Source: Nanobdellati archaeon
GTDB lineage: Archaea; EX4484-52; WAPT01
NCBI GenBank assembly: GCA_015520605.1
Contig: WAPT01000009.1
Location: 1 to 14,758, forward strand
Direction: 5' to 3'
DNA length: 14,758 nucleotides
Of the stretch, positions 2,281 through 12,440 are shown piece by piece. Made by a program: the position numbers and the translations under genes. Under the pieces are notes generated by a model that was not told the origin of the DNA, did not search any database, and was given only the letters and a program-made list of their open reading frames with translations. Every line of letters begins with the position of its first letter. Positions within the stretch are counted from its first letter, which is position 1.

Positions 2281-2802
2281 ATGAACTTCCTAGACGTGGT
2301 GAGCACGCTCAATCAGGTTGGATTTTACGATGTGGTGGTGCCCTGGCTCCTGTTCTTTGGTATCGTCTTCGGTCTGTTACAGAATAAGCAAATAATCACC
2401 GATGAGAGAGGCATAAATGCCCTCATAGCGACAGCCATAGCGTTTTTTATAGTCGCTTTCACTCCAGCGGGAACCACAATAGCAAACTTCTTTTCCACAC
2501 TATTCGGAGGAGCGGGGATGATAATCGGTGCTTTGCTTGTGCTCATGCTCTTTGCCGCCATAATGGGTGTGCAGGACGCATTTAAGGAGGGTGGAAACGG
2601 ACAGCCTCCAATCAAATATGCTGTGGTATTCGTGCTCCTCATATTCGCTTATCTCGTTTATGCCAATGCTTTCGGCGGAGCAACATCGGCGATGATATCC
2701 AATGATACGCTGGTAACCCTTCTGACCCTTGTCTTCATCTTGGGTGTGATCTGGATAGCGATGCAGGGCGGCGGAGGTGGAGGAGAAGGTGGAGAGGATT
2801 GA
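2281..2802 (+). CDS. Small polytopic membrane protein (~5 TM), paralog 2 (173 aa)
   Basis: GGTGA SD. Motif LNQVGFYDVVVPWLLFFGIVFGLLQ...GINALIATAIAFF. Gly/acidic C-terminal tail GGGGGGEGGED. Confidence 0.92.
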   Translation: MNFLDVVSTLNQVGFYDVVVPWLLFFGIVFGLLQNKQIITDERGINALIATAIAFFIVAFTPAGTTIANFFSTLFGGAGMIIGALLVLMLFAAIMGVQDAFKEGGNGQPPIKYAVVFVLLIFAYLVYANAFGGATSAMISNDTLVTLLTLVFILGVIWIAMQGGGGGGEGGED

Positions 2803-2857
2803 AATCGTTTAAGTCCTCAACCGCCAACCGACTTGCCAGAAACCGGGTGATGTAAAT

Positions 2858-3346
2858 ATGAACTTTATGGACGTTATCGGGATCCTCAACCAGGTTGGAT
2901 TTTACGACTTCGTGTTACCCTGGTTACTATTCTTCGGTATCATCTTCGGTCTATTACAAAGAACCGAAATTTTCGGAAACGAGAGAGGCATAAACGCCAT
3001 CATCTCCGCAGCCATAGCGTTTTTTGTTGTCAGTTACACGCCGGTGGGAGGTATAGCTGTTTATTACTCGAAACTCTTCGGAGGAGCCGCTATGATTCTT
3101 TCAGCCCTACTCGTGTTTGTGTTGTTTGTTGCGATTATGGGGCTCGAGGTCAGCGGAGAGAATGGTATCTTCCAGGAGAACAAGGTAAAGTACATGGTGA
3201 CGGGGGCTCTAATAATTCTGGCGTATATCGTCTTCAGCAACGCTTACGGCGGAGATTTTTCCCTGTATATTCCACAGGAAACATGGACGGTATTGTTCAC
3301 TTTTGGATTCATTTTGCTGGTGGTCTGGATAGCAGTCAAGGGCTAA
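2858..3346 (+). CDS. Small polytopic membrane protein (~5 TM), paralog 3 (162 aa)
   Basis: GGTGA SD at 2846-2850. Motif LNQVGFYDFVLPWLLFFGIIFGLLQ...GINAIISAAIAFF, colinear with paralog 2. Confidence 0.92.
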   Translation: MNFMDVIGILNQVGFYDFVLPWLLFFGIIFGLLQRTEIFGNERGINAIISAAIAFFVVSYTPVGGIAVYYSKLFGGAAMILSALLVFVLFVAIMGLEVSGENGIFQENKVKYMVTGALIILAYIVFSNAYGGDFSLYIPQETWTVLFTFGFILLVVWIAVKG

Positions 3347-3372
3347 TGCTATAAAAAGGGGGCGATGTTGAG

Positions 3373-3834
3373 ATGTCGCTTATGGGTGTTGTCATCTCCA
3401 ACCTGAACAACATTGGGTTTTACGATTTCTTCATGCCGTTCGTGCTTATTCTTGCTGTTGTTTTCGGAATTCTGCAGGAAAAGAAAACGATAAGTAGTGA
3501 GGTATCTGTAAACGGAGCGATAGCCATAGCCGTGGCGTTCCTCGCAACGTACACCTTACGCGGCGTGTTCTACACGGAGCTCTTTGGAATTGGTGGAATG
3601 ATAATTGCAGCATTAATCATAGTTATTCTGATCCTCGCCATTTTGGGTATAAAACCCGAGGAAATTCTCGGCAGCGGATCAAAACCGATCGTGGGGCTGG
3701 TGGCGATAATAATCGGCATAATGGCTTATCTTGCAGCATCTGGTTACGAAGCGTCCGTAAGCCCAGATACTATCCTCACAATCGTGGTTCTAATTGTGAC
3801 GTTTGGAGTAGTTTATCTTATAGCTAATAGCTAA
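3373..3834 (+). CDS. Small polytopic membrane protein (~5 TM), paralog 4 (153 aa)
   Basis: G-rich SD at 3358-3362. Motif LNNIGFYDFFMPFVLILAVVFGILQ...SVNGAIAIAVAF. Confidence 0.92.
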   Translation: MSLMGVVISNLNNIGFYDFFMPFVLILAVVFGILQEKKTISSEVSVNGAIAIAVAFLATYTLRGVFYTELFGIGGMIIAALIIVILILAILGIKPEEILGSGSKPIVGLVAIIIGIMAYLAASGYEASVSPDTILTIVVLIVTFGVVYLIANS

Positions 3835-3870: not shown

Positions 3871-4716
3871 TTACTTTCTTTTCATAGCACGTTCTTTCTC
3901 TTCAAACCTCCTTTTTAACTCAACAACCATCTCCTTGGATTCCCTCACACTGTCCACAAGATTGGGCACTATGTCCTTAAAGGCATCCTCAAGGCTCTTT
4001 ACCCTGGGGTCGAGCTTGGAAATACTTTCTTTAAGGTTTTTTATTTCAGTATCAAGTTTTTCGTGAACCTCTTCGAAAGACTTTTTTGTCTCCTCAAACC
4101 TGTTGTTCAGAGCGTTCAGGTTCATCTCAAGACTATCGATCCTAGAAATGAGCGTCTCAATTTTTTCATTGAAAGCATCGAGTTTCTCGTTAACCACATT
4201 CTCAACCATATTGTACATTTCCTCCACCCATTCTGCGTCATCGTAGTAATCACTTTCAGGATTATCGGTTGAGTCGGATTGAGCACTGCTCCCTATTGGC
4301 GTAAGGTCAAAAACGTTGTTCTCTCCGGAAAGCTCATACGAGCTGAAATTGCTTTCCGTGGTTGGTGGTGAAATACTACTGGAAGAATCCGTCACACTCT
4401 GCTTCAAAACTCTGGTCAGTATCCTGTCGGCATCTAAAGGGGTTAATCCCTGAGATATCAAAGCGTTTCTGACCTCTTCCTCCCCGTATCCCTGCGAGAA
4501 AAGAGAAAAAACATAATTGATCCAATGTATTTCATCAAATGGCTGTGTATAATTCCTTGTATATTGCGTCGATGCTCCCGTTTGGGATTGAGATGGAAAA
4601 GGAACACCACCGTATTCCAAAGATGGAACGGAGGATACACCACCGAGTTCAACGGAGGACAATTGTTTCTTTTTATTAGATTTTCCTTTCCCAAAGAGAC
4701 TATCCAGTATACCCAC
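3871..4716 (-). CDS. Hypothetical protein with N-terminal amphipathic helix, small helical domain, Ser/acidic linker and long C-terminal coiled coil (281 aa)
   Basis: Start reassigned to GTG 4716, which has a GGAGGT SD at 4730-4725 and gives the N-terminus MGILDSLFGKGK. Heptad-rich C-terminal half (LDAFNEKIETLISRIDSLEMNLNALNNRF...). Overlaps the upstream gene by 17 nt. Confidence 0.85.
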   Translation of the reverse strand: MGILDSLFGKGKSNKKKQLSSVELGGVSSVPSLEYGGVPFPSQSQTGASTQYTRNYTQPFDEIHWINYVFSLFSQGYGEEEVRNALISQGLTPLDADRILTRVLKQSVTDSSSSISPPTTESNFSSYELSGENNVFDLTPIGSSAQSDSTDNPESDYYDDAEWVEEMYNMVENVVNEKLDAFNEKIETLISRIDSLEMNLNALNNRFEETKKSFEEVHEKLDTEIKNLKESISKLDPRVKSLEDAFKDIVPNLVDSVRESKEMVVELKRRFEEKERAMKRK

Positions 4717-5116
4717 GGCTCTCAACCTCCAGCATATCCTCAAGCATTTCCTTTATCATTTCTTCGACCTCTTTTCTCGTTACGTATTTGGTGGTCACCG
4801 GAGATATCAGCTCTATGTATCTTTTGAGTTCCTCTATATCACTTTGTTTTGCCAGCTTCTTGACGTCTTTTCTAAGCTCTATTATATCCGTCTCAATATT
4901 TATCATTTTATCCTCAAGTATCTTTATTCTGTGCTCGATTTCTCCGCTTTTCTTGTTAACATCCTTCTGAAAGGATATGAGATCTTTCTCAAAGGCGTTT
5001 ATCCTGAACTCTAAGTTCCTTAACCTTTCCTCCAGAATTCTGAGTCTTCTCATGTTGTCATTAACCCTTCTGAAAAGCTCGTTTATGGCAGCGGTAATGT
5101 CGCCTCCCTTAAGCAA
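4700..5116 (-). CDS. Small coiled-coil protein (138 aa)
   Basis: TTG start with a GGTGA SD (5127-5123). Nearly continuous heptads (RLRILEERLRNLEFRINAFEKDL...), then LKRYIELISPVTTKYVTRKEVEEMI. Confidence 0.88.
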   Translation of the reverse strand: MLKGGDITAAINELFRRVNDNMRRLRILEERLRNLEFRINAFEKDLISFQKDVNKKSGEIEHRIKILEDKMINIETDIIELRKDVKKLAKQSDIEELKRYIELISPVTTKYVTRKEVEEMIKEMLEDMLEVESRGYTG

Positions 5117-5215: not shown

Positions 5216-7504
5216 GTGGTCGAAATGTCCCAGTTTGAGCTCCCGAAACCATGCAGTTATGAATACGACAGAAAGACACGCACATTGAAGATAAACTGTC
5301 TAGGCTGCATGTACGGTGCAAGCATAGAGGACTTTGAGGAGTGCATGACCAGAGTTATAGACAGACTAACCCAGATAAGGGGTGTTGAGAGGATCATTCT
5401 GTCCCAGACACAGGATTTTGAGTATGATTATGCTCAGACCCTCATGCTTCAGGAAATAGCATCGATAATCAAGCACTATTCAACAGAAAGAAAGCTGATC
5501 TCCATAAGGGCGGTTGCTCCAACTCCGTCCGATCCAGAAGCGCCCGCAAGGCTGGCATTCATCCAGCAACTGCTTGTAAGCAAGCTCAAGCGCGATCCCG
5601 TGGGTGCTTACATGGCCCTTCTCAAAGAAATAAGAAAAGAGACGCTCAGGGCAAAGATGCTTCCCCCTCGCATCCGAACCTCTGTTAATCACTACCTCAA
5701 CAACGCACTCCTCCCGCTGAAGGAAGCTTTGGAAAAAACCCAGCTCATCTCGCTTGTGAGGGGAAGGCTTGATGAATACAGGCCCGGAGACAGAGCGATT
5801 TATCGAGAGATCTTCCATCCCATAACAAGGCCCAACTTCATGTACACACGTTTTATGTTGCTTCCCCCGGCAGACGGGAAGGAAATAGACAGTTATGTGG
5901 TGGGCAAGAACATAAAAGTGCAGATTTACAAGCTCGCCACAAGACCGGAGCATCATTACCACATCATTCCGCCTGAGCTTGACCTGAGTGAGGACGAGTA
6001 CACACTGCTTGACGCTGCAAGACAGTATCTCGCTGCTCACAAGCCGACAAGATCGGAATTCTCTGATCCGGAAAGAGCAAGGGAGGTATTCTTCAACATA
6101 GGAAAGGATCTGCTTCTCGAGCTGGCCGAGCATATGAGAATGGACGTGAAGTCGGACAGAATCAGCGAGCTTGCACAGATACTGGCAAGATATACAGCTG
6201 GATATGGAATACTGGAGGTTTTGATGGCAGATGAGAAAGTGCAGGATCTCCACATAAACGCGCCCGTAGGCACAACGCCAGTTTTTCTGTTTCATGCAGA
6301 TTATGAGGAGTGTGTGACGAACATAATCCCCACGAGGGAGGATGCCGAAGCATGGGCGACGAGGTTCAGGATAGAAAGTGGGAGACCTCTTGACGAATCA
6401 AACCCAGTTCTTGACACGGAGATGATAACTCCATATGCGAGGATTAGAGTGGCGGCCATAACCAGGACACTCAGCCCGGATGGCTATGCCTTTGCACTGA
6501 GGAGACACAGAGACAGGCCGTGGACTCTACCACTATTCATTGACAGGAAGATGATTAACCCCATGGCAGCCGGCTTGCTCTCGTTCATCATTGATGGGGC
6601 CAGAACCATCCTGTACGCGGGGACGAGAAGTGCCGGTAAAACCTCTATGCTCGGATCCACGCTGGTGGAGATCCTCCCAAGGTACAGGATAGTGACGGTG
6701 GAGGATACTCTTGAACTGCCAGTTGAATACCTAAGGAGAATTGGCTACAACATCGTCAGACTGAAATCCAGATCGATCATAACGCATGTGGAGAGCGAGC
6801 TGCCGACCGATGAAGCTCTCAGGGTGTCCCTAAGGCTCGGAGATTCATGTCTGATACTCGGTGAGGTCAGAAGCGTGGAAGCGCGAGCTCTCTATGAAGC
6901 GATGAGAATAGGCGCTCTTGCCAATGTGGTGGCCGGCACGATCCACGGTGATTCTCCTTACGGTGTCTTTGACAGGGTTGTGAACGATTTGCATGTACCT
7001 CCAACAAGCTTCAAGGCCACGGATGTCATTGTAATAGCGAACAGGTTAAGGACCGCTGACGGACTGCATACGTTCAGAAGAGTTGTGGAGATCGTGGAGG
7101 TGAGGAAGGACTGGGAGAGAGATCCCGTTAAGGAAGGCGCTTTCGTTCCTCTCATGGTCTACGATGCAAAGAAGGACACGCTTGTCCCGACGGAAACCCT
7201 GCTCAACGGGGAGAGTGTGATACTCAACGAGATTGCCAAGCGCGTCAGGGAATGGAGAGATAACTGGGAGGAGCTGTGGCAAAATATAGAAGCAAGATCC
7301 AAAATGAAGGAGGAAATTGTTAGGGTGGCAAGAGCGACTGGTAACCTGAACATTATGGAGGCCGATTTTTATGTCAAGGCCAATGTTATGTTTCATGTTA
7401 TCGGAGAGAGGGTGAGGGAGGAACACGGGGAGCTGGACTCGCTGAGAGCTCTAAACTTGTGGAAGAACTGGCTGGACACACAGGTTAGAACATTTCAAAG
7501 GTAG
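5216..7504 (+). CDS. Type II/IV secretion system ATPase (archaeal PilB/FlaI/VirB11/TadA family) with a long N-terminal extension (762 aa)
   Basis: Walker A GTRSAGKTS (6620-6646), Asp box TVEDTLEL, Walker B LILGEVR and His box GTIHG. Also has the family-typical GYGILEVLMADEKVQDLHIN and FALRRH segments. The start may be ATG 5225. Confidence 0.95.
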   Translation: MVEMSQFELPKPCSYEYDRKTRTLKINCLGCMYGASIEDFEECMTRVIDRLTQIRGVERIILSQTQDFEYDYAQTLMLQEIASIIKHYSTERKLISIRAVAPTPSDPEAPARLAFIQQLLVSKLKRDPVGAYMALLKEIRKETLRAKMLPPRIRTSVNHYLNNALLPLKEALEKTQLISLVRGRLDEYRPGDRAIYREIFHPITRPNFMYTRFMLLPPADGKEIDSYVVGKNIKVQIYKLATRPEHHYHIIPPELDLSEDEYTLLDAARQYLAAHKPTRSEFSDPERAREVFFNIGKDLLLELAEHMRMDVKSDRISELAQILARYTAGYGILEVLMADEKVQDLHINAPVGTTPVFLFHADYEECVTNIIPTREDAEAWATRFRIESGRPLDESNPVLDTEMITPYARIRVAAITRTLSPDGYAFALRRHRDRPWTLPLFIDRKMINPMAAGLLSFIIDGARTILYAGTRSAGKTSMLGSTLVEILPRYRIVTVEDTLELPVEYLRRIGYNIVRLKSRSIITHVESELPTDEALRVSLRLGDSCLILGEVRSVEARALYEAMRIGALANVVAGTIHGDSPYGVFDRVVNDLHVPPTSFKATDVIVIANRLRTADGLHTFRRVVEIVEVRKDWERDPVKEGAFVPLMVYDAKKDTLVPTETLLNGESVILNEIAKRVREWRDNWEELWQNIEARSKMKEEIVRVARATGNLNIMEADFYVKANVMFHVIGERVREEHGELDSLRALNLWKNWLDTQVRTFQR

Positions 7505-7510
7505 TCTCTC

Positions 7511-9610
7511 ATGGGAAAAAACGAGGAAAAGGAGAAACTCAGGGAAATTGAGGAAAAGGAGAGGATGATGAAGGAAATAATAAAGAGATATAACATTGTT
7601 TCTCCGGTGGAAAAAAGGGGAGAAGCATCCACAATCTCGCTTGAGTATCGCGTTTTTAAGGAAGAAGAGTTAAGAGCAAAGATGCTCAACTTTTACGAAA
7701 AGCTCTGCAAGTCCGCACCTAATCTTAACATAACCCTATCGGAAGAATTCATGGAAAAGCTGAATACTGCGATAAGATTTACTGGTCTCAAAGTCACACC
7801 GCAGGATGTAATCTCCGCTGGCTTTTTGATGGCAATCATATCCCTTCTTTCCGTGCTCCCAACACTTTTCCTTCCAATCCCACTGTATGTGAAACTCGTG
7901 ATTATACTCTTTCCTGTCATTGTAGCATATGTAATTATGTATTACCCGCTTTATCGGGCTGCATGGATCAGAATAAGAGAGGGTAGATCACTGCTACTCG
8001 CCGTTCTTTACATGATAGTCTACATGAAGACCACTCCGAATTTTGAAGGCGCCGTTAGATTTGCTGCATCCAACCTAGAAGGAAAACTCGCCCAGGACTT
8101 AAAGGAAGTACTCTGGAAAGTTGAGGTTGGGGAATACACAACGATTGAGGATGCTCTGTTCGATTATCTTAAGGTGTGGAGTCAGTACAACAAAGAAGTT
8201 GTTGAAGCCGTCCACATGATAAGGCAGAGTTTACTTGAGCCATCGGCTGAAAGAAGAGACGCGATGCTCTCCAAAGCGATAGATCTCGTGCTTGAGGAGA
8301 TGGACGAGCAGATGAAAAAATATGTAAGGGATCTCGAAACACCAGTCGTGGTACTTCACGGATTGGGCATTCTATTGCCGGTCATGGGTATGATTGTGTT
8401 TCCGCTTGTGAGTGCTTTCATGCAGGAAGTCGGGCCCAACCTCGTGAAGGTTCTGTTTGTGGGATACGACATAATACTGCCTCTGATTGTTTTTATCTTG
8501 CTCAATCAGATTTTCATGAAAAGGCCACCTACCCACACAACCGTTGAGCTTACACAACACCCGGACTACATACCACCAGGAAAGTTTAAGATTGAGATCG
8601 TAGGCAAAAGGATTATAATTCCGGCAATCATCCCGACATTAATTGTTCTTACCATAGGTATGTATCCTGTGCTAAATATTATGCTGATAACAAACTTCTT
8701 CTTCAACGTTTCGGAAAATATGAGAACAAAAAGTATGCTCGTAAGTCTTGTCTTTACCCTTGTTCTTGCAATAAGCACAGCTATGTACTATTATCTGAGC
8801 TGTTTCCAGAAAAGGAAGCTGAGAGAGGAAATAATAGAGATGGAGAAGGAATATGAGGAAGTGCTCTTTGCCCTAGGCAACAGGCTGATGGACGATCTGC
8901 CTATAGAAAAGGCGCTCGTCAAAGCGGAGGAGGATATAAAGGGGATGAAAATAGCGAACTTTTTGAGAATAGTGATCAAAAACATGACTCAGCTAAACAT
9001 GACTTTCAAGGAGGCCATCTTCAACAACCAGTTCGGTGCCCTCAGGTACTATCCCTCAGCCCTCATCTCGGCCATAATGAAATCCATTTCGGACGCGCTA
9101 AATAAGGGTCCGAGAGCCGCAGCACTCGTGCTCCTCACCGTCGGGAGATATATCCGCAACATAAGAACGACACAGGAGAAAATAGAAGATCTTTTATCCA
9201 GCGTGGTTTCAAATCTTAAGTTTCAGGCTTATGTTTTGGTTCCCGTAATAGCGGGTGTAGTGGTTGGTGTTGCGAGGATCATTCTGGCAATCTTGGCCAA
9301 AATGTCTCAGAACATGGCTGCACTCAATCTTGGAAATGTGGAGGGCGTACCCAGCATGACGTTACCAACATTTGGGAGTGGTGCAATACCCTCCGAACTG
9401 TTGCAGATCATCGTGGGTGTTTACGTTCTGGAGGTGCTCGTGATATCTGGAGTTTTCATAGCGAGAATAGAAGCTGGCGATGACAAGATTTACGAACATG
9501 ATACCGTCTGGAAAATATTGCTTGTTGGGGTACTCCTTTACATCCTCATCTATCTGATAGTCATGGCGATCTTTGGCCCGATGGTAGGAACCGTGACTGG
9601 AGCTTCATGA
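7511..9610 (+). CDS. TadC/PilC/FlaJ-type (T2SS-F) membrane platform protein with two cytoplasmic domains (699 aa)
   Basis: Starts 6 nt after the ATPase. About nine TM segments flank two T2SSF-like helical domains (NFEGAVRFAASNLEGKLAQDLKEVLWKVEVG..IEDAL and LGNRLMDDLPIEKAL..FLRIVIKNMTQLNMTFKEAI). Confidence 0.85.
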   Translation: MGKNEEKEKLREIEEKERMMKEIIKRYNIVSPVEKRGEASTISLEYRVFKEEELRAKMLNFYEKLCKSAPNLNITLSEEFMEKLNTAIRFTGLKVTPQDVISAGFLMAIISLLSVLPTLFLPIPLYVKLVIILFPVIVAYVIMYYPLYRAAWIRIREGRSLLLAVLYMIVYMKTTPNFEGAVRFAASNLEGKLAQDLKEVLWKVEVGEYTTIEDALFDYLKVWSQYNKEVVEAVHMIRQSLLEPSAERRDAMLSKAIDLVLEEMDEQMKKYVRDLETPVVVLHGLGILLPVMGMIVFPLVSAFMQEVGPNLVKVLFVGYDIILPLIVFILLNQIFMKRPPTHTTVELTQHPDYIPPGKFKIEIVGKRIIIPAIIPTLIVLTIGMYPVLNIMLITNFFFNVSENMRTKSMLVSLVFTLVLAISTAMYYYLSCFQKRKLREEIIEMEKEYEEVLFALGNRLMDDLPIEKALVKAEEDIKGMKIANFLRIVIKNMTQLNMTFKEAIFNNQFGALRYYPSALISAIMKSISDALNKGPRAAALVLLTVGRYIRNIRTTQEKIEDLLSSVVSNLKFQAYVLVPVIAGVVVGVARIILAILAKMSQNMAALNLGNVEGVPSMTLPTFGSGAIPSELLQIIVGVYVLEVLVISGVFIARIEAGDDKIYEHDTVWKILLVGVLLYILIYLIVMAIFGPMVGTVTGAS

Positions 9611-9662: not shown

Positions 9663-10019
9663 TTACTTTTTCTTTCTCTTTATCATCTCAAACTCTATCT
9701 GCGTTATGGGCTCATCACTTTTGAACTCCCCATAGATTTCCTTGAGAGCTTTCTTAAGTTTAGACTTGCTTGAAAAACCGTCCTTTTTCGCGTCTTTGGG
9801 TGTTATCTCCTTAAAGGTCTTGTGTCTCACAGTCTTTATTAGAGCTTCGCCTATCACCTCGTCTCCAGCGACGACCTCAACAACATCCCCTTCCTTGTAC
9901 TTGTTCACATGACCCTTCCTTATTGTGGTTGTTTTCACACCCGATATTATGAGGTGTTTGTAATCCTCCAAGAACTTCATCCTCTTTCTCCCGTGAGGTT
10001 TGGAACTATCTTCTTCCAT
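9663..10019 (-). CDS. ASCH-domain protein, YqfB-like (putative N4-acetylcytidine amidohydrolase or RNA-binding protein)
   Basis: ASCH signature IISGVKTTTIR, then YKEGDVV, ITPKDAKKDGF, LKKALKEIY and ITQIEF, colinear with E. coli YqfB as I recall it. ATG 10019 is preferred (GGAG at 10029-10026). The ORF track gives 10031. Confidence 0.88.
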   Translation of the reverse strand: MEEDSSKPHGRKRMKFLEDYKHLIISGVKTTTIRKGHVNKYKEGDVVEVVAGDEVIGEALIKTVRHKTFKEITPKDAKKDGFSSKSKLKKALKEIYGEFKSDEPITQIEFEMIKRKKK

Positions 10020-10030
10020 GCCTAACTCCA

Positions 10031-10050
10031 TTTAAACTTAATGTTTTAAG
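10031..10050. promoter_or_regulatory. Putative overlapping divergent TATA boxes for tmcA (+) and the ASCH gene (-)
   Basis: TTTAAACT on + starts 28 nt before ATG 10059. TTAAAACA on - starts at 10049, 30 nt before ATG 10019. Confidence 0.4.
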
Positions 10051-10058
10051 ACTTTCTC

Positions 10059-12440
10059 ATGGAGCTGGAAAGACAGCTTGAGATTATCATGGAAAACGCT
10101 ATCGAGCTTAACGAGAGGAGAATGTTTGTTATATCGGGAAAGTTTAGGAGCAAAGTTGTTTGGCTAAGGAGGACGCTTAAATCTTATCTTAAAGTTACGA
10201 GGAAACTTTTGAAGAGAGAGCATGGTGAGTTAGTTTTTCTCTGGATGGGTAAGGACACGGAGGGGGAAATGAGCACAGAGGTTAAAAAAGCGCTTGATAG
10301 GGAGAATATAAGGTACGACTTCGTTAAATTCAAGGAAGCTGACACGGTGCTCGGAACGAACTACGACGGACTCATTCTCGATCTCAACGAGGGCATAGCA
10401 CCGAATGATCTTGGAAAAGTAATCGGGGTTGTGAAGGGCGGCGGCATCATCATTCTTTTAATGCCACACCTTGAAGAGTATAAGAAAATATTTACAAGGT
10501 TCCACAGGATGATCCTCGTACCTCCTTACACAGAAGAACACGTGAGGAGGGTGTTTAACAGATGGTTCGTAAAGAAGCTGCTGGAGCATGAGGGAATAAC
10601 CATAATTGAGAATTGTGTGCCGGTAAAGCTACCAAAGATAGTCAAGAGGAAGAGGAAGAAAAGGAGCAGGGATCTTGAAATTCCCGAAGATGTTGAGGTC
10701 AAGCGAGGAATTCTGAAGCTTTGCGCCACAAGAGATCAGCTGGACGGCTTGCTAAAGCTCTGGAAGTTTTTTAAGGAGGGAGAGGAGAATATATTCATTC
10801 TCACATCCCACAGGGGCAGGGGTAAATCGAGCCTTCTCGGGCTCTTCATAGCAGCGCTTGTGAGCAGGGAAAAGGCAACCGTTGTGATAACCGCCCCTGA
10901 GAGATCGAGTGTGAGGGAGCTTTACAAGTTTCTGGATCTCGGACTTAGGAGAGCCAAGATCAATGCAAGGGTGATGGAGAAGTACGACAACATGGAGGAC
11001 ATAATAATAAAGAGGACGGGCTCCAAGATAAGGTACTTTCCGCCCTACAAGCTGAGAAGGGTGAAGGCAGACCTCCTTATAATTGATGAGGCGGCTTCCA
11101 TTCCGATCTATATTCTCTTCGATGCGATGAAACGCGCCAGAAAAGTAGTACATTCCACTACAGTCCACGGATATGAAGGCTCAGGAAGAAGCTTCAACAT
11201 AATCTTTCTAAGGAGTCTCGAAGAGTCCAAAGTACCCTATGTCAAGCATGAGATGGTTGAGCCTATAAGGTACAGCGAGGACGATCCGATAGAGAACTGG
11301 CTTTTTGATGTGCTTCTGCTTGACGCCGAACCGGCAGAGATAACAAAAAAGGAAATGGAAGAGCTTGAGATCTCCAAACTCAAATACGAAAGGGTGGATA
11401 TGGAAACGCTGCCTTTTAGCGATGAGAGGAAATTAAGACAGCTTTTCGGAATATTTGTGACAGCACACTACCGAAACAACCCCAACGACTTTGGCCTGAT
11501 GTGTGATGCACCCCACCACGAGATAAGAGCGCTTACATACAACAACAAGGTTATCTGTGCTTTGCAGATAGCTAAAGAGGGAGGACTAGAAAAAGAAGCC
11601 TACGATATGTACTATGGAGATATGCCTCCGGGTCATCTCATTCCCGACAGGATGATAAAGCACTATAGGAATGTGGAGTTCGGTAAAATGGAGGGGCTGA
11701 GGGTTGTTAGGATAGCTGTGCATCCTGATTTGATGGGGAAGGGTATAGGCAGCTACATGCTCTCAAAGCTGGAGAAAGAGGCAAGACAGCACGGCGATGA
11801 TTGGGTAGGAGCAAGTTTTGGAGCTACACCGAGGCTTCTGAACTTCTGGAAGAAAAACGGCTTTGTTCCTGTTCACATGGCTCCTGCCCCAAACCCATCA
11901 ACGGGAGAGTTTTCAACCATAGTGGTCAAGCCGATAAGCAAAAAGGCAGGCGACCTTTTCTCCATGGCTAGAGGAGAGTTTATTATAAAGCTTGTGAACT
12001 CTCTGCCCGAACCATTTGATCAGGTGCCGGTTGAGCTGATTCTCGGAGTTCTTGACGATGGCATAAAGGAAAAGAAATATCTACCAAAATTAACGGATGT
12101 GCAGTGGAAAAGGTTAGCTTTTTACGCTCACAGCGTGCTAACCTTTGAAAGCGTGAGGGACTGCATGTTTGAGGTGTGCAAGGCGGTATTTTTAGCTGAT
12201 AAAAAACCGGAACTTTGCGGGGTTCACAAGCGGATTATACTTGCCAAGGTGCTGCAGGGAAAGAGCTGGGAGAAGGTGAAGGACGAGCTTGGAAAGGGAT
12301 CCATCTACTGGATGATAGAGCTGAAGGATGTGGCTAAAAAGCTTCTTACCTTTTATGGATCAAACAAGGTGAGCGAGAGGGAAATAAAGAAATTGGATGA
12401 AGTGTTCGAGAAAATCAGGGAGAAAATGAAGAATAGATGA
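10059..12440 (+). CDS. tmcA: tRNA/rRNA cytidine N4-acetyltransferase TmcA/Nat10 (793 aa)
   Basis: N-terminal LGTNYDGLILDL..PNDLGKVIGVVKGGG. Helicase motifs RGRGKSS, IIDEAA and STTVHGYEGSGRSF, then EPIRYSEDDPIENWL and AHYRNNPNDF. GNAT motifs RVVRIAVHPDLMGKGIGS and GASFG. Confidence 0.97.
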   Translation: MELERQLEIIMENAIELNERRMFVISGKFRSKVVWLRRTLKSYLKVTRKLLKREHGELVFLWMGKDTEGEMSTEVKKALDRENIRYDFVKFKEADTVLGTNYDGLILDLNEGIAPNDLGKVIGVVKGGGIIILLMPHLEEYKKIFTRFHRMILVPPYTEEHVRRVFNRWFVKKLLEHEGITIIENCVPVKLPKIVKRKRKKRSRDLEIPEDVEVKRGILKLCATRDQLDGLLKLWKFFKEGEENIFILTSHRGRGKSSLLGLFIAALVSREKATVVITAPERSSVRELYKFLDLGLRRAKINARVMEKYDNMEDIIIKRTGSKIRYFPPYKLRRVKADLLIIDEAASIPIYILFDAMKRARKVVHSTTVHGYEGSGRSFNIIFLRSLEESKVPYVKHEMVEPIRYSEDDPIENWLFDVLLLDAEPAEITKKEMEELEISKLKYERVDMETLPFSDERKLRQLFGIFVTAHYRNNPNDFGLMCDAPHHEIRALTYNNKVICALQIAKEGGLEKEAYDMYYGDMPPGHLIPDRMIKHYRNVEFGKMEGLRVVRIAVHPDLMGKGIGSYMLSKLEKEARQHGDDWVGASFGATPRLLNFWKKNGFVPVHMAPAPNPSTGEFSTIVVKPISKKAGDLFSMARGEFIIKLVNSLPEPFDQVPVELILGVLDDGIKEKKYLPKLTDVQWKRLAFYAHSVLTFESVRDCMFEVCKAVFLADKKPELCGVHKRIILAKVLQGKSWEKVKDELGKGSIYWMIELKDVAKKLLTFYGSNKVSEREIKKLDEVFEKIREKMKNR

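Follow-up and report, generated by a model that had tools for sequence, protein, structure and literature searches.

The window analyzed in this study, a stretch of 14,758 nt from the genome of a Nanobdellati archaeon, contains two genes that diverge from one short spacer. One is tmcA (10059..12440, plus strand), which encodes an RNA cytidine N4-acetyltransferase of the TmcA/Nat10 family, and the other is a small gene for a YqfB-type ASCH protein (9663..10019, minus strand). Our results suggest that the ASCH protein is probably an N4-acetylcytidine (ac4C) amidohydrolase that acts on the product of the neighboring TmcA. The predicted reaction would be hydrolysis of the N4-acetyl group, by which N4-acetylcytidine is converted to cytidine and acetate, as judged from the literature on Escherichia coli YqfB and archaeal ASCH proteins. 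The pairing of the two genes is not due to chance, as it recurs in other lineages.

The ASCH protein possesses the features of the YqfB type that the initial annotation had recognized. Its ASCH domain (PF04266) scored 62.5 bits in Pfam (cut-off, 21.2), with residues 18–117 on profile positions 1–102 of 103, and its best NCBIfam model was the N4-acetylcytidine amidohydrolase equivalog NF003443 (38.4 bits). The phmmer alignment to the YqfB chain 1te7_A (E 0.009) bore out the residue correspondences that had been proposed. GVKTTTIR was opposite GRKTITIR, with K33, T36, and R38 at the positions of K21, T24, and R26, D84 was opposite E74, and KEIY was opposite ADIY, with Y100 at the position of Y89. 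The codons of the octapeptide G31-V-K33-T-T-T36-I-R38 are at 9918..9941, that of Asp84 is at 9780..9782, and that of Tyr100 is at 9732..9734, all on the minus strand. YqfB is reported to hydrolyze ac4C with a kcat/Km of up to 2.8e6, and its K21A, T24A, and R26A mutants are inactive (PMC6972931). Thus, the G-x-K-x-x-T-x-R motif of the ASCH protein keeps the residues whose replacement by alanine inactivates YqfB. E74 of YqfB is the general acid, of which the E74A mutant is ~1000-fold slower on ac4C (kcat), and H70A is ~tenfold slower (PMC6972931). Tyr89 is a substrate contact in YqfB.

The structural comparison that had been proposed as a check gave the same placement. The AlphaFold model of the ASCH protein, whose predicted local distance difference test score (pLDDT) was 84, is a PUA-like beta-barrel with flanking helices. 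In a Foldseek search of the PDB, its top matches were the YqfB entries 9kyf and 9kyh, with an E value of 1e-7, a target template modeling (TM) score of 0.85, and a root-mean-square deviation (rmsd) of 1.9 A over 101 columns. The ASCH protein ranked next had an E value of 3e-5, and those listed among the 18 PDB matches at E ≤ 0.001 were ASCH proteins.

Several observations, however, weigh against this assignment. The score of 38.4 bits is far below the 93-bit cut-off of NF003443, and the ASCH protein was therefore placed in the YqfB clade and not identified as a YqfB orthologue. Glu74 of YqfB is replaced by Asp. H70 and D27 of YqfB, whose conservation among bacterial YqfB-like proteins is reported to be 100% (PMC6972931), are replaced by D80 and K39, respectively, in the same alignment. 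Moreover, the activity of the ASCH protein and of its close clade is predicted from sequence, and so is the assignment of the promoters and leaderless transcripts that is described below.

The change from Glu to Asp, which the initial annotation had suspected may mark a non-catalytic subfamily, is shared by nearly all the relatives of the ASCH protein that were aligned. A profile search covering 1.84 billion representatives found 811 relatives at E ≤ 0.001, yet only 1 at E ≤ 1e-30, so the close ASCH clade is small. Across an alignment of 30 relatives whose identities to the query ranged from 35 to 89%, K33, T36, R38, G85, L92, and Y100 were invariant. D84 was found in at least 90% of these relatives and was replaced by Glu in one member. 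Given that D84 is near-invariant, Asp at this position is a conserved family trait and no sign of decay.

A different role for the ASCH protein would be that of a non-catalytic partner, either an ac4C reader, which had been offered as an alternative by the initial annotation, or an adaptor that presents RNA to TmcA, as THUMPD1/Tan1 serves Nat10/Kre33. The fold of ASCH domains is PUA-like and binds RNA, the weak Foldseek matches included chains of PUA and pseudouridine-synthase proteins, and the protein is very basic. The overlapping frames that were found in other lineages are also compatible with a fixed stoichiometry of the two proteins. However, the lysine, threonine, arginine, acidic residue, and tyrosine of the presumed active site are invariant or nearly so in the family, and pure binding needs none of them. 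Moreover, relatives with the same octapeptide are reported to be active enzymes (10.64898/2026.02.27.708502). A reader is thus disfavored, and a non-catalytic role of either kind appears very unlikely.

TmcA is a protein of 793 amino acid residues in which the complete domain order of the TmcA/Nat10 family is present. The Pfam domains were, in order, TmcA_N (2.3e-39), the NAT10/TmcA helicase (9.5e-53), GNAT_acetyltr_2 (4.3e-42), and tRNA_bind_2 (1.1e-5), and the NCBIfam TmcA model scored 487 bits. The helicase/ATPase domain is encoded at 10797..11324 and contains a GRGKS P-loop (R252-S257) that was invariant in 16 aligned TmcAs. The GNAT acetyltransferase domain is encoded at 11439..11867, with GNAT_acetyltr_2 at residues 461–573 and Acetyltransf_7 at residues 547–603. 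At E ≤ 1e-20, 602 TmcA homologs were found; the nearest ones in the database (P0157–P0165) were 43–54% identical, with P0157–P0161 at 49–54%. A predicted complex of TmcA with the ASCH protein scored 0.00, below the mark, which weighs neither for nor against contact between the two proteins.

The identity between this TmcA and a Thermococcus TmcA was 38%, and the host is not a member of Thermococcales, whose RNA the initial annotation had cited as background on ac4C. The host genome has 863,228 bases (0.86 Mb) in 27 contigs, is 90.7% complete, and has a GC content of 44%. Among sequencing runs, the only one that contained all the sampled words of the stretch is labeled as a hydrothermal vent metagenome, which may be its source, and no RNA run was listed as containing it. 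Its phylum is represented in the collection by 42 genomes of 0.5–2.2 Mb, all of one order. Domain IV of elongation factor 2 was not found in a search for a placement marker, and RpoB was therefore used for a rough placement. The best named matches of the host RpoB were from Aenigmatarchaeota and metagenome-assembled genomes of the DPANN group, with identities of 56–62%. The host RpoB is a single long frame of 1098 amino acid residues (G000:C3:2243-6334, L129), while most of its best database matches are split B' subunits of ~597 amino acid residues.

The adjacency of tmcA and the ASCH gene, which the initial annotation had allowed might be unique to this genome, extends beyond it, and it does so in two different layouts. 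In all 3 genomes of the host genus, a real TmcA (>180 bits) and an ASCH protein of this type were encoded by adjacent, divergent genes. Neither gene was detected in the remaining 39 genomes of the host phylum. In the 38 other phylum genomes searched for TmcA, the only matches were weak ones to the helicase (≤30 bits), and two other genomes of the phylum had weak ASCH matches and lacked TmcA. Most of this small-genome lineage is thus apparently without an ac4C writer, TmcA being detected in 3 of 42 genomes, all of one genus. Either the host genus gained the pair or the remainder of the phylum lost it, and the distribution would fit either direction.

A TmcA-alignment search of the contigs of named genomes yielded 80 loci that extended by as much as 5 kb to either side of the match, some of them being shorter; the survey covered the sister genome G001, Thermoproteota, and loci with the four titles given below. 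A hidden Markov model (HMM) of the ASCH family matched 9 of the 80 TmcA loci, one of which was the divergent locus of the sister genome G001. The remaining 8 linked loci (L013, L014, L019, L023, L051, L064, L077, and L086) have the titles Thermoplasmata, DHVE2, Aciduliprofundum, or Methanobacteriota archaeon. In every one of them the ASCH frame was directly downstream of tmcA on the same strand and overlapped the end of the tmcA frame. With the same HMM, no ASCH gene of this type was found near tmcA in the 71 other loci, all of which are from Thermoproteota, and a broader ASCH HMM added one marginal match among the 80 loci (L033, E 0.0038). A search with a 5-sequence ASCH alignment as the query also recovered the co-directional layout in 3 of 10 metagenome loci, at identities of 43–46%. 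The ASCH relative P0005 and the TmcA homolog P0157 both have a longest contig of 105,634 bases, a hint that their genes may lie on one contig.

The link was also found in a sample of 251 genomes of Thermoplasmatota, the phylum of one linked genome. ASCH matches at E ≤ 1e-8 were found in 17 of these genomes (20 matches), and 13 of the 20 loci, which were all the strong stand-alone ones (13 of 13), directly followed the C-terminus of TmcA. The 7 unlinked matches were three paralogues of ~190 amino acid residues and four weak matches. TmcA itself was found in 17 of the 251 genomes, of which 13 had the pair and 4 had no such ASCH match. Where it was checked, the linked gene was the sole ASCH gene in 4 of 5 such genomes. 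This sample shares at least 2 genomes with the eight named loci, and the counts from the two sets should therefore not be added. In one genome of the sample, G144, tmcA is split over two contigs (C82:76-612 and C139, locus L104), with the helicase part on one and the C-terminal part and the ASCH gene on the other, which is most simply explained as an assembly break.

The two genes of the window are thus not part of a same-strand operon, whereas all the linked cases examined outside the host genus were co-directional. These cases are from related organisms and not independent of one another; they represent perhaps three to five separate lineages with one clear change of layout.

The TmcA tree, which was built from 95 rows after L073 with its short match was left out, placed all 12 ASCH-linked TmcAs on one side of a split with 97% support in the Shimodaira–Hasegawa-like approximate likelihood ratio test (SH-aLRT). 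On the opposite side were 73 rows, made up of 70 loci from Thermoproteota plus 3 database proteins taken without their gene context; the linked side also includes ten such database proteins. The host TmcA belongs to an 11-row group beside a 7-row group of Thermoplasmata-titled loci, both within an 18-row clade with 96% SH-aLRT support, and L077, which has the title Methanobacteriota archaeon, diverges immediately outside this clade. Resolution of the ASCH tree was poor, with 8 starred branches among 47, and the tree is compatible with a single origin of the linkage or with several. On the simplest reading of the TmcA tree, the link would have arisen once on this side, and the divergent layout would be an inversion of the small gene.

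Shared ancestry of a gene block, and not a shared function, could also account for the tmcA neighborhood, in which case the substrate of the ASCH protein would be another N4-acylated cytosine compound or another modified base. The substrates reported for YqfB include N4-acyl cytosines and N4-acyl cytidines of different structures (PMC6972931), and the counterparts of its H70 and D27 are replaced here. Moreover, the linked Thermoplasmatota genomes may be one clade and hence represent few independent events, and of the 71 unmatched TmcA loci, the 70 from Thermoproteota that entered the tree have no ASCH gene nearby. However, the link survives both the change between divergent and co-directional layouts and the divergence of TmcA to ~40% identity, and in the host phylum one genus has both genes, whereas neither was detected in the 39 genomes outside that genus. 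A different substrate is therefore improbable, and ac4C made by TmcA is the more plausible one.

The two open reading frames (ORFs) are divergent, 9663..10031 on the minus strand with 122 amino acid residues and 10059..12440 on the plus strand with 793. As initially noted, their start codons are 27–39 bp apart: 27 bp (10032-10058) separate the first ATGs, and the distance is 39 bp when the ASCH protein starts at Met5 (10019). Met5, which gives a protein of 118 amino acid residues, was taken as the start because in the sister genome G001 the counterpart of the Met1 ATG is not in frame and the gene begins at the Met5 equivalent with a 40-bp gap, and because the closest database orthologue, P0003, also starts at the Met5 equivalent. 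Met1 was ruled out as the start by the same frame break in G001. Met18 was likewise ruled out, as all four closest orthologues have Leu at position 18; these four retain the N-terminal basic extension.

The resulting divergent spacer of 39 bp (10020..10058) contains a 22-nt core (10029-10050) that was identical in the DNA alignment of all three members of the genus, even though the proteins of G001 are only 73–76% identical to those of the host. Within the spacer, a TATA-like TTTAAA (10031..10036, plus strand) starts 28 nt before the tmcA ATG, and a TATA-like TTAAAA (10044..10049, minus strand) starts 30 nt before the ASCH Met5 ATG. The two boxes are ~12 bp apart, and each is spaced correctly for the opposite gene. 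The same geometry was found in G001, at −28 and −31 as counted by hand on the DNA alignment.

Such spacing is common in the host genome. Before the first ATGs of 532 ORFs of at least 200 amino acid residues, TATA-like hexamers were counted 14, 22, 31, 37, 42, and 31 times at positions −33 to −28, and mostly 2–8 times elsewhere. Similarly, 151 of 745 ORFs of at least 150 amino acid residues had a TATA-like hexamer at −33 to −28. This genome-wide peak is a signature of leaderless transcripts and therefore indicates many leaderless mRNAs. Shine–Dalgarno-like motifs preceded 133 of the 532 ORFs, compared with 27 in a control window. In a leaderless promoter the center of the TATA box is ~26–27 nt before the start codon, and the boxes at −28 of tmcA and −30 of the ASCH Met5 agree with this distance. 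Both genes would thus have leaderless mRNAs, whose transcription would depend on two TATA boxes that interleave within the 39-bp spacer. A scan for sigma-70 promoters and terminators found matches at the level of shuffled sequence only, and such a scan is not relevant to an archaeon.

Each box presumably serves the gene that is farther from it, in which case two initiation complexes would clash. This geometry would equally allow competing initiation and the co-regulation that the initial annotation had assumed. At least 17 of the 108 divergent pairs in the host genome have gaps of 11–54 bp, some of them with boxes on both sides. Short divergent spacers are therefore common in this compact genome, and a short gap alone says little.

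The ASCH protein is strongly Lys-rich, as the initial annotation had remarked: lysine makes up 24 of 122 residues (19.7%), whereas the 543 long ORFs of the genome have a median lysine content of 7.7%, with the 95th percentile at 12.1%. Its isoelectric point (pI) is 9.6 and its net charge +8 or +9. Given that residues 18–117 have a net charge of +3, the excess is mostly in the Lys/Arg tails at the N-terminus (residues 5–17) and the C-terminus (residues 117–122), to which ~+6 can be assigned. The basic tails are retained in the close clade of database relatives P0003–P0006, whereas P0010 and P0015, two representatives that resemble the operon-linked ASCH type, have pIs of 5.6–5.8 and lack the tails.

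Where the predicted hydrolase would act is less clear than what it would do. Its main job may be to clear and recycle the ac4C that is released by RNA turnover, as free nucleoside, as nucleotide, or in exposed residues, because acetylation blocks the deamination and the reuse of cytidine. The block of cytidine deaminase by acetylation was reported in a preprint in which free ac4C is argued to be the physiological substrate of EOLA1 (10.64898/2026.08.01.741249). We consider the chances of clearance of free or exposed ac4C as the main job to be about even, while genuine erasure of ac4C from folded tRNA or rRNA is possible but doubtful. The kinetics of YqfB lean toward clearance, as may two further reports: the pocket of YqfB is narrow and would require base flipping (10.64898/2026.08.01.741249), and in E. 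coli without yqfB the ac4C of RNA is unchanged (10.64898/2026.02.27.708502; 10.64898/2026.08.01.741249). The co-transcription with the writer in most lineages leans in the same direction, for an RNA eraser made from overlapping frames together with the writer would amount to a futile cycle.

Three points count against the restriction to free nucleosides. First, OMP (orotidine monophosphate) decarboxylase and CTP (cytidine triphosphate) synthase genes are present in the host genome, and there is therefore no obvious dependence on pyrimidine salvage. Second, the pI of 9.6, the net charge of up to +9, and the Lys/Arg tails look like features for nucleic-acid binding. Third, all 19 of the ASCH proteins tested in one preprint are reported to remove ac4C from tRNA in vitro, and most also hydrolyze the nucleoside (10.64898/2026.02.27.708502). 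A gene of the cytidine/dCMP-deaminase fold was also found in the host genome, whereas a uridine-kinase family gene was not found in this 90.7% complete assembly. Dependence on salvage was dropped as an argument, given that the deaminase-fold gene, CTP synthase, and OMP decarboxylase are all present.

The same features could be read as those of an RNA-level eraser under antagonistic control, whose Lys-rich tails bind RNA and which removes ac4C from tRNA or rRNA. As two interleaved promoters could not be occupied at once, either the writer or the eraser would be transcribed. In addition to the tails, their absence from P0010 and P0015, and the activity of the tested ASCH proteins on tRNA, the two boxes spaced for opposite genes and the 22-nt core identical in three genomes are consistent with this possibility. 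However, high pI is reported to be no predictor of tRNA binding among ASCH proteins (10.64898/2026.02.27.708502), the host genome has further divergent pairs with a short gap and TATA boxes on either side, and the conserved core comes from three related genomes only. Together with the unchanged RNA ac4C of E. coli without yqfB, the narrow pocket of YqfB, and the futile cycle expected in most lineages, these points make RNA-level erasure a tentative explanation with clearly less than an even chance. For the host clade itself, the Lys-rich tails, the high pI, and the separate predicted promoter lean toward work on RNA.

An evolutionary version of antagonistic control would be that an ancestral writer–hydrolase operon was turned into a switch, in which the ASCH gene was inverted, the leaderless promoters became mutually exclusive, and the Lys-rich tails were gained for work on RNA. 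We regard such a history as unlikely. If it were true, either the writer or an RNA eraser would be transcribed, and ac4C levels would be reversible and dependent on conditions. Clearance of ac4C released from RNA remains the better-favored task of the predicted amidohydrolase.

The host genome contains three ASCH matches and one real TmcA. A second ASCH gene (G000:C20:13118-13417; locus L010:1243-1803, minus) is away from tmcA and is part of another short divergent pair with a 47-bp gap. It encodes 186–187 amino acid residues, of which the ASCH domain comprises residues 5–99 and is followed by an extension of ~85 residues without a Pfam match. The protein clusters with the 190-aa paralogues of the Thermoplasmatota genomes, and both are probably of the ASCH-plus-HTH (helix-turn-helix) type described in 10.64898/2026.02.27.708502.

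The rest of the window is occupied by genes of other kinds. At 2281-3834 on the plus strand are three tandem paralogous genes for proteins of 173, 162, and 153 amino acid residues without a Pfam match, which share the N-terminus MNF[LM]DV..LNQVGFYD and several hydrophobic stretches, and a fourth membrane-like ORF is at 1702-2217. Coiled-coil proteins are encoded at 3871-5116 on the minus strand, upstream of a FlaI/TadA-like secretion ATPase of 762 amino acid residues (T2SSE, 45 bits; the archaellum FlaI model, 126 bits, far below its cut-off). An ORF of 699 amino acid residues without a family match follows the ATPase gene after 6 bp. The two (5216-9610, plus strand) may belong to a type IV filament or secretion locus.

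What was known already is the removal of ac4C by archaeal ASCH proteins (10.64898/2026.02.27.708502) and the operon of YqfB-clade and TmcA genes (10.64898/2026.08.01.741249). The gene pairing and the general idea are thus already in preprints, and the gain of this study is incremental. New, to a modest degree, are the head-to-head layout, the two interleaved TATA-like boxes that fit leaderless starts, the Lys-rich tails, and the patchy distribution in the phylum. In the question of whether the acetylation of cytidines in RNA can be reversed, ASCH proteins are the current candidates for ac4C removal. Comparative evidence from the locus strengthens the case that the writer is accompanied by a YqfB-type hydrolase, even through a change of gene order. 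Moreover, the Lys-tailed, separately promoted version and the acidic, co-transcribed version of the Thermoplasmata provide a natural contrast that could help to distinguish nucleoside clearance from RNA erasure.

Similar to E. coli YqfB (1TE7, 9KYF, 9KYH; PMC6972931), which is the nearest solved structure to the ASCH model, the ASCH protein is a stand-alone ASCH domain of ~100 residues with the G-x-K-x-x-T-x-R motif and identical Lys, Thr, Arg, and Tyr residues. Different from YqfB, to which it is 25% identical, it has Asp in place of both Glu74 and His70 and Lys in place of Asp27, and its host is archaeal and its gene beside tmcA. It also has a basic tail at each terminus and a pI of 9.6, whereas YqfB is reported not to bind nucleic acids. 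As far as their description allows comparison, the GKTR-type ASCH proteins, of which Afu2ASCH is stand-alone while Afu3, Pku2, and Pku4 have an HTH, resemble it in being archaeal and thermophile-associated and in having the threonine-type octapeptide. Afu2, Afu3, Pku2, and Pku4 are reported to be active on both the nucleoside and tRNA, and Afu2ASCH was grouped with proteins whose pI is close to or above 9, like that of the ASCH protein here (10.64898/2026.02.27.708502). The main text of that preprint does not mention gene neighborhoods, and its one use of 'operon' concerns RudS.

According to its text on Fig. S1a, the other preprint places YqfB-clade genes in conserved operons with TmcA/Nat10 (10.64898/2026.08.01.741249). 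Both families are linked there as they are here, and the ASCH protein is likewise read as acting on the ac4C that is made by the acetyltransferase; as compared with that text, however, the genes of the window are divergent and have separate, interleaved predicted promoters. Human EOLA1, of the TRIP4-like ASCH clade, is also a stand-alone ASCH protein and is reported to deacetylate free ac4C for salvage (10.64898/2026.08.01.741249), but its octapeptide is of the glutamate type, it belongs to another clade, and it was a weak structural match (5y7d, Foldseek E 0.024). The eight Thermoplasmata/DHVE2-type loci share the same ASCH subfamily (113–130 bits against the family HMM), and their TmcAs adjoin the host clade in the tree, with L077 just outside. 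Their ASCH genes, however, are co-directional with tmcA and start within its 3' end, and the representatives that resemble them, P0010 and P0015, are acidic and without tails, whereas the ASCH gene of the window diverges from tmcA and encodes a basic, tailed protein.

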